Translations under genes and position numbers: made by a program
Shown here: positions 46,861 through 47,225 of the stretch, piece after piece
Layout of the letters: each line of letters opens with the position of its first letter
Position numbering within the stretch: the stretch's first letter is position 1
Notes under the pieces: generated by a model
The model's input: only the letters and a program-made list of their open reading frames with translations
The model's database searches: none
Told to the model about the DNA's origin: nothing
Source of the DNA: Escherichia coli
GTDB lineage: Bacteria; Pseudomonadota; Gammaproteobacteria; Enterobacterales; Enterobacteriaceae
Assembly: GCF_003334385.1 (NCBI RefSeq)
Contig: NZ_QOWN01000032.1
DNA length: 48,915 nt
Reading direction: 5' to 3' (one strand)

Positions 46861-46890
46861 AACCCCGTCCTGTACGGGGTTTGTTTTTTG
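46861..46890 (+). terminator. Rho-independent terminator of pssA (AACCCCGTCC-TGT-ACGGGGTT followed by TGTTTTTTG)
   Basis: Hairpin plus U-run immediately after the pssA stop. Confidence 0.75.
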
Positions 46891-46901
46891 GAGGCCACGT
46901 T

Positions 46902-47225
46902 TTGCGTATTCTTTTTGTCTGTTCGCTATTGTTACTTTCTGGATGCAGCCATATGGCTAACGATAGCTGGAGCGGGCAGGATAAAGCTCAACACTTTATC
47001 GCCTCGGCGATGCTTTCCGCCGCCGGAAATGAATATTCACAGCATCAGGGGATGAGCCGGGATCGCAGTGCCATGTTTGGATTGATGTTCTCTGTCAGTT
47101 TGGGGGCGTCAAAAGAGCTTTGGGATAGCCGCCCCGAAGGGAGCGGCTGGAGCTGGAAGGATTTGGCCTGGGATGTCGCCGGTGCAAGCACCGGCTATAC
47201 CGTCTGGCAACTGACCCGTCACTAA
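46902..47225 (+). CDS. yfiM: Small lipoprotein (107 aa), probable TTG start
   Basis: ORF track (46881..47225); GGAGG at 46890-46894, 7 nt before TTG 46902; lipobox LLSGC. The 3' end overlaps kgtP by 4 nt. Confidence 0.85.

Follow-up and report, generated by a model that had tools for sequence, protein, structure and literature searches.

The genes pssA and yfiM of Escherichia coli follow one another on the same strand, and in the 48,915-nt stretch of DNA analysed here (the window) the pssA-yfiM segment is base-for-base identical to that of MG1655, whose coordinates are obtained by adding 2677226 to those of the window. The region occurs in each of 5426 complete E. coli genomes, and K-12 derivatives are 100% identical to it. 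The coding sequences and the elements found between them are listed below in window coordinates, together with the evidence for each.

45501..46856, plus strand: pssA coding sequence, phosphatidylserine synthase, 451 aa, ATG start (MG1655 b2585 mapped by offset; NCBIfam equivalog NF006946, 788 bits)
46854-46856, plus strand: pssA stop codon TAA, 4 nt 5' of the hairpin base and 6 nt 5' of its G+C core
46861-46881, plus strand: predicted terminator hairpin AACCCCGT/CCTGT/ACGGGGTT, core 46863-46879 (terminator scan, fold, covariation)
46880-46889, plus strand: T-run (U-tract) TTTGTTTTTT (sequence; conserved in 73 sequences; published coverage step at 46890)
46881-46883, plus strand: spurious in-frame TTG inside the T-run, the mechanical ORF start (ORF list)
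46890-46894, plus strand: Shine-Dalgarno (SD) sequence GGAGG, adjoining the last T of the T-run (sequence; a GGAG-like motif lies 5-7 nt 5' of the start in most species)
46902-46904, plus strand: yfiM start codon TTG, after a 7-nt spacer from GGAGG (RefSeq/PGAP; homologous codons)
46902..47225, plus strand: yfiM coding sequence, 107 aa, YfiM family lipoprotein, DUF2279/Lipocone (NCBIfam NF008028; PF10043 in homologues; dN/dS)
46944-46946, plus strand: Cys codon of the yfiM lipobox, after the signal peptide
47222..48520, minus strand: kgtP, convergent with yfiM (annotation; published mRNA 3' ends; ExcludonFinder)

The hairpin consists of 8 bp, five of them G-C, closed by a 5-nt loop and followed by UUUGUUUUUU, which is the make-up of an intrinsic terminator; the first two T of the T-run are also able to pair as outer A-U pairs of the stem. 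From hairpin to start codon there are 20 nt, and these are entirely taken up by the T-run, the SD and the spacer. An earlier sequence-only reading of this DNA had described the pssA hairpin and U-run as abutting the GGAGG and the TTG start of yfiM, and every one of these elements lies where it had placed them.

The position of the yfiM start is well supported. TTG at 46902 opens the annotated 324-nt gene in MG1655 (b2586), in the PGAP annotation of K-12 derivatives and in eight other E. coli strains, and the product matches the equivalog NF008028 with 194.8 bits against a cut-off of 117, over residues 1-105 of its 107 aa and aligned from residue 1. The N-terminus read from this TTG has a short basic start, a hydrophobic stretch and the lipobox L-S-G-C, as is typical of a lipoprotein. 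For comparison, the locus was fetched from one genome each of 80 Enterobacteriaceae species and the lipobox Cys codon was located in each; among the 77 sequences with a recognisable N-terminus (76 loci and the window), the start codon lies 14 or 15 codons 5' of this Cys in all except Entomohabitans (76/77). At the homologous codon, 48 of 73 sequences have ATG, 19 have GTG and 6 have TTG. All six TTG starts belong to Escherichia, and GTG is found in Citrobacter (15/16), Salmonella, Huaxiibacter and two Enterobacter. As far as these sequences tell, TTG thus arose recently, as a derived state within Escherichia, and does not belong to the conserved junction design, and the replacement of ATG by GTG or TTG within the Escherichia-Citrobacter-Salmonella group appears to be a new, if incremental, detail. 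With a canonical GGAGG 7 nt before UUG, and AUG or GUG at the same codon in homologues, yfiM resembles other cases of SD-led UUG initiation, and there is nothing unusual in it.

The mechanical ORF list starts the frame upstream, at TTG 46881, before which the open frame has no other start codon, and translation from there would yield a 114-aa protein. The sequence-only reading had called this start implausible, a judgement that the comparative data uphold and that leaves very little room for initiation at 46881. The codon sits inside the T-run with no SD before it, every annotation (RefSeq and MG1655 included) uses 46902 instead, and the 67 other species carry ATG or GTG at the homologous position. 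The spacer between GGAGG and TTG varies by 2 nt within Escherichia (ccacgttTTG in K-12 vs ccacgTTG in three other species), and E. coli SC476 has a T-run 2 nt shorter, for which PGAP retains the same TTG; these 2-nt indels break the longer frame and would be tolerated only in non-coding sequence, so the 114-aa frame can be dismissed. A longer form of YfiM is impossible in Buttiauxella and several other genera, where the reading frame is closed by a stop codon 3-9 nt ahead of the homologous start. The TTG start and 107-aa product of RefSeq are hereby confirmed, the importance of which beyond annotation hygiene is small.

Two further observations concern start codons in the relatives. The SD of many Citrobacter, Enterobacter and related species itself contains an in-frame ATG (tATGGAGG), 4 codons 5' of the homologous GTG or ATG and about 12 nt before the start (locus positions 1989-1991 in L009, L011, L017, L021, L026, L028, L038 and others), and this probably explains the 111-aa YfiM database entries that exist beside the 107-aa ones. 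In the 111-aa form a Glu would enter the N-region of the signal peptide, and the embedded ATG has no SD of its own; YfiM records of 111 or 114 aa are probably over-extensions. In Escherichia albertii (L005), an in-frame ATG stands directly before the TTG (gacATGTTG, locus positions 1998-2003), 2 nt after GGAGG, and the T-run is degraded to TTTATTTTCT; either the start or the strength of the terminator may be in shift in this species.

The hairpin has a folding energy of -11.4 kcal/mol (z = -2.85 vs shuffles) and is the single terminator-like site that a consensus scan returned in the 2.2 kb from 45300 to 47500. The simple terminator pattern is by itself no rarer than chance, with 1 found vs 2.5 +/- 1.6 in shuffles, and hence the case rests on the position of the hairpin after the stop codon, on covariation and on a step in RNA coverage. 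A search of the junction against Rfam gave no family match. When 84 and 141 nt were folded, the terminator hairpin was the sole stable element, and the folds as a whole did not differ significantly from shuffles (z -1.9 and +0.3). Three other roles for RNA structure at this place were considered. A leader-peptide attenuator was rejected, as no alternative antiterminator structure is predicted and Rfam offers no match. Sequestration of the SD through GCAUCC/GGAGGC at the hairpin base appeared in one fold; it is weak, was not significant in the longer folds, and a common synonymous polymorphism, C46847A, falls on the pairing. A bidirectional terminator was likewise set aside, the reverse strand having the stem and, as read from the sequence, no T-run after it.

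Further evidence comes from the family. We scored 73 sequences (72 fetched loci and the window) that carry a hairpin downstream of pssA, and the order stop, hairpin, T-run, SD and start recurs in them, with G+C-rich hairpins of 5-11 bp and the yfiM start 16-24 nt past the hairpin end (mode 18). In 62 of 72 species, 2-9 nt separate the pssA stop from the hairpin; the short spacing is absent in ten, with distances of 14-27 nt in Buttiauxella, Cedecea and Shimwellia. Covariation was scored on a MAFFT alignment of the 73 junctions. Of the alignment cells that make up the eight stem pairs, 96.1% are paired, compared with 89.2 +/- 0.6% for shuffled partners and at most 62.5% for slid partners, and double-sided changes occur in four of the eight pairs (55 cells vs 22.4 +/- 3.3 in shuffles, equalled in 0 of 500 shuffles, a count that overstates the significance because the sequences are related). 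Stem pair 11-31, for instance, is G-C in 41 sequences, A-U in 24 and G-U in 5, and pair 15-27 is C-G in 50, U-A in 16 and U-G in 5. Given the slid controls and these wobble intermediates, a conserved RNA stem is the only reasonable reading. Such a covarying, family-wide architecture of the pssA-yfiM junction appears to be a new detail, though an incremental one.

The element can also be lost, since two Pluralibacter species (L065, L072) have no canonical hairpin and T-run between pssA and yfiM. In Entomohabitans (L060) the hairpin is present without a T-run, and ATA stands at the homologous start position. The Pluralibacter and Entomohabitans loci are natural "terminator-less" comparators. Within E. 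coli, 4524 of the 5426 complete genomes carry an identical 91-nt junction. The variants that were sampled comprise the synonymous C46847A, A46861G (by which a G-U pair is kept), a T-to-G change in the T-run and a shortened T-run, and in all of them the TTG is untouched.

How, then, is yfiM transcribed? As the 20 nt between hairpin and start are filled by T-run, SD and spacer, no promoter fits between them and yfiM transcripts must begin upstream. The sequence-only reading had offered two routes, readthrough from pssA or a promoter embedded in the pssA 3' end. The upstream origin it required stands, and the two options turn out not to be true alternatives: a promoter in the 3' end of pssA is also upstream of the hairpin, so that its transcripts must read through too, save in one case, that of initiation within the hairpin. 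Across the final 500 nt of pssA, sigma-70 matches are weak (8-9/12) and no more numerous than expected by chance, and motif scans of the same 500 nt found neither an extended -10 nor a sigma-E motif.

The exceptional case would be a yfiM promoter buried at the end of pssA and initiating inside the 5' arm of the hairpin, the transcripts of which would be incapable of folding into the terminator and would bypass it. A candidate exists, namely TCGACC (46828-46833) and, after an 18-nt spacer, TGTAAT (46852-46857) across the pssA stop; they match the -35 consensus at 4/6 and the -10 consensus at 5/6, respectively. However, position 2 of the -10 candidate is not the critical A, the two hexamers stand 18 nt apart and the pair failed both promoter scans. 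TGTAA is moreover explained by coding (Leu-stop), with CTCTGA, CTTTAA or CTGTGA in other genera, and the covariation keeps the whole stem, including the 5' arm that such transcripts would lack. We regard a buried promoter as unlikely, although the RNA that remains downstream of the junction cannot separate readthrough from new initiation.

That RNA is known from the DirectRNA-seq data of Adams et al. (2021; PMC7815308), in which the position with the best Rho score is 2724116(+), corresponding to 46890 of the window, the first base past the T-run. The authors report it as the top position of a "Rho termination region", with a Rho score of 3.05. Without bicyclomycin there were 179 reads upstream vs 30 downstream in 800-nt windows, and with bicyclomycin 90 vs 46 (PMC7815308). 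Sense RNA hence drops about six-fold at 46890 without vanishing, and the residual of about 17%, taken over an 800-nt window of which yfiM makes up only 324 nt and to which RNA stability contributes too, is compatible with readthrough and not specific for it. Part of the drop is bicyclomycin-sensitive, so that the intrinsic hairpin is not the whole story. A share for Rho is expected if yfiM is poorly translated from the readthrough RNA, which past yfiM would carry no ribosomes and run antisense to kgtP. No 3' end at the pssA-yfiM junction figures in the Term-seq list curated in the same study (PMC7815308), and the SMRT-Cappable-seq and TERMITe tables have no pssA or yfiM entry. Readthrough is the best-supported route to yfiM expression, if not a proven one. 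Taken jointly with a yfiM gene fed by readthrough, it is likely that the element is an intrinsic (Rho-independent) terminator of pssA, set directly against the yfiM ribosome-binding site.

The other claim of the sequence-only reading was that a non-ATG start implies low, tightly set expression. Low expression is plausible, being in line with the low level of downstream RNA (30 vs 179 reads). "Tightly set" finds no support, as the TTG is confined to Escherichia, the SD is strong and non-AUG starts retain 10-100% of AUG activity. UUG is the start codon of about 3% of E. coli genes. In reporters AUG, GUG and UUG together span 10-100% of the activity of AUG (Hecht et al., bioRxiv 10.1101/063800), and with a near-ideal SD in front, TTG would reduce YfiM output several-fold at most.

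It could also be asked whether the terminator is simply efficient, so that the junction merely ends the pssA operon and E. coli, under normal conditions, expresses practically no yfiM, the weak TTG and kgtP antisense RNA contributing. The six-fold fall of sense reads would suit this, as would the very abundant kgtP 3' ends that lie antisense inside yfiM, the 576 antisense reads per 800 nt, and a full-text literature search that returned no functional study of YfiM, the sole functional discussion of yfiM found being a bioinformatic prediction. Yet every one of the 5426 complete E. coli genomes has the gene, and its dN/dS of 0.05-0.18 against other Escherichia, Salmonella and Citrobacter indicates purifying selection. 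A strong SD and an intact lipobox are kept across the family, and so is the synteny with pssA, in the conserved co-directional string trxC-tapT-patZ-pssA-yfiM. From its sequence record yfiM is, we would say, a working gene, and an effectively silent yfiM is accordingly improbable. The supplementary text of the Mori proteome paper has no yfiM or pssA entry.

The antisense transcription deserves a description of its own. The annotated coding sequences of kgtP and yfiM overlap by 4 nt (47222-47225), and the pair is listed by ExcludonFinder. Published 3' ends of kgtP mRNA, with very high counts, map to 47171 and 47140 within yfiM (Adams et al., PMC7815308), and antisense RNA extends over yfiM and the junction as far as a strong Rho-dependent site at 46516 (minus strand) within pssA, with a Rho score of 19. 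Antisense RNA over yfiM seems to outnumber sense RNA.

The reading we prefer, and consider likely, is that a leaky terminator internal to the operon sets a low expression of yfiM. It would act as a step-down valve: most pssA transcripts would end at about 46889 and a minority continue, and YfiM would be made from the fraction of transcripts that passes the hairpin and U-run. On these continuing transcripts the strong GGAGG, at its 7-nt spacing, would bring ribosomes to the weak TTG. A G that interrupts the U-tract may also weaken release.

A partial terminator of this kind is no novelty in E. coli, where the rpsU-dnaG terminator and the rplL-rpoB attenuator are textbook examples. The concept of partial terminators inside operons is discussed by Li et al. 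(2016; PMC4824070). The pssA-yfiM junction shares with them a G+C-rich hairpin and U-tract between co-directional genes, RNA that steps down and persists, and a downstream gene without an evident promoter. It differs from them in being unusually compact, with the SD beginning at the base that directly follows the last U. The junction is real and conserved across enteric bacteria, yet of an ordinary and known kind, its start codon having been annotated and its RNA step published.

The pssA stop codon might partly determine how far the terminator leaks. The footprint of a ribosome extends about 10 nt past its A site. To judge from the geometry, a ribosome that follows closely behind RNA polymerase and reaches a stop 4-6 nt ahead of the stem would occlude the 5' arm and block termination, and transcription of yfiM would in this manner be tied to translation of pssA. 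A precedent was provided by Li et al. (2016; PMC4824070), who found the lambda tR2 terminator to be nearly fully repressed when an upstream stop codon was a few bp away: with the stop at 5 instead of 28 bp upstream, efficiency dropped from about 90% to less than 10%, and it was restored when translation was removed. By analogy, the pssA terminator is probably weakened by ribosomes that stop 4-6 nt upstream. The junction is like these ribosome-repressed terminators (the tR2 constructs of PMC4824070 and the pyrBI attenuator) in having its stop 4-6 nt from the stem, a distance shorter than the stretch of roughly 10 nt shielded by a ribosome. Unlike the tR2 constructs and the pyrBI attenuator, it has no leader peptide, pause site or alternative antiterminator hairpin, and gating is deduced from geometry only. 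The short gap between stop and hairpin in 62 of 72 species fits selection for a ribosome-gated leaky terminator, with the ten species that are without it to be kept in mind. A stricter version, in which polymerase enters yfiM only with a pssA-translating ribosome close behind and the U-run doubles as an S1-binding leader for the yfiM ribosome-binding site, is more tentative, and we hold it to be possible at best.

What such a coupling could mean depends on the product. In the Lipocone paper of Burroughs, Nicastro and Aravind (PMC12419801), a conserved five-gene operon with PssA and YfiM is described, and YfiM is predicted to act on the phosphatidylserine made by PssA. If this is so, knowledge that yfiM is slaved to pssA transcription through a leaky terminator would help in planning genetic work on it (PMC12419801 for the predicted activity). 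If ribosome gating holds true, synthesis of YfiM, a predicted lipid-head-group-modifying lipoprotein, would be tied to translation of phosphatidylserine synthase without a dedicated regulator. In either case pssA-yfiM is a clean, conserved natural fusion of terminator and ribosome-binding site, and could serve as a compact part for a fixed expression ratio.

Some minor observations were made in the surroundings of the junction. The window is identical to MG1655 through pssA-yfiM-kgtP, and upstream of kgtP, at 48582-48600, there is a 1-nt indel with a few substitutions (TTTTTTTTGGTAAAGAAAATGTT vs TTTTTTTTGTAAAGGAAATATT), so that the strain behind the window is not MG1655 itself. At the other end of pssA, a 13-codon ORF annotated as pssL (b4782, MNREEMHCDVVKI) occupies 45476-45517 and overlaps the pssA start at 45501; a full-text literature search for pssL gave hits only to the acronym in unrelated senses. 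An extended -10-like sequence, TGTTATTAT, lies at 45427, and from its sequence it is a plausible candidate for the promoter of pssA.
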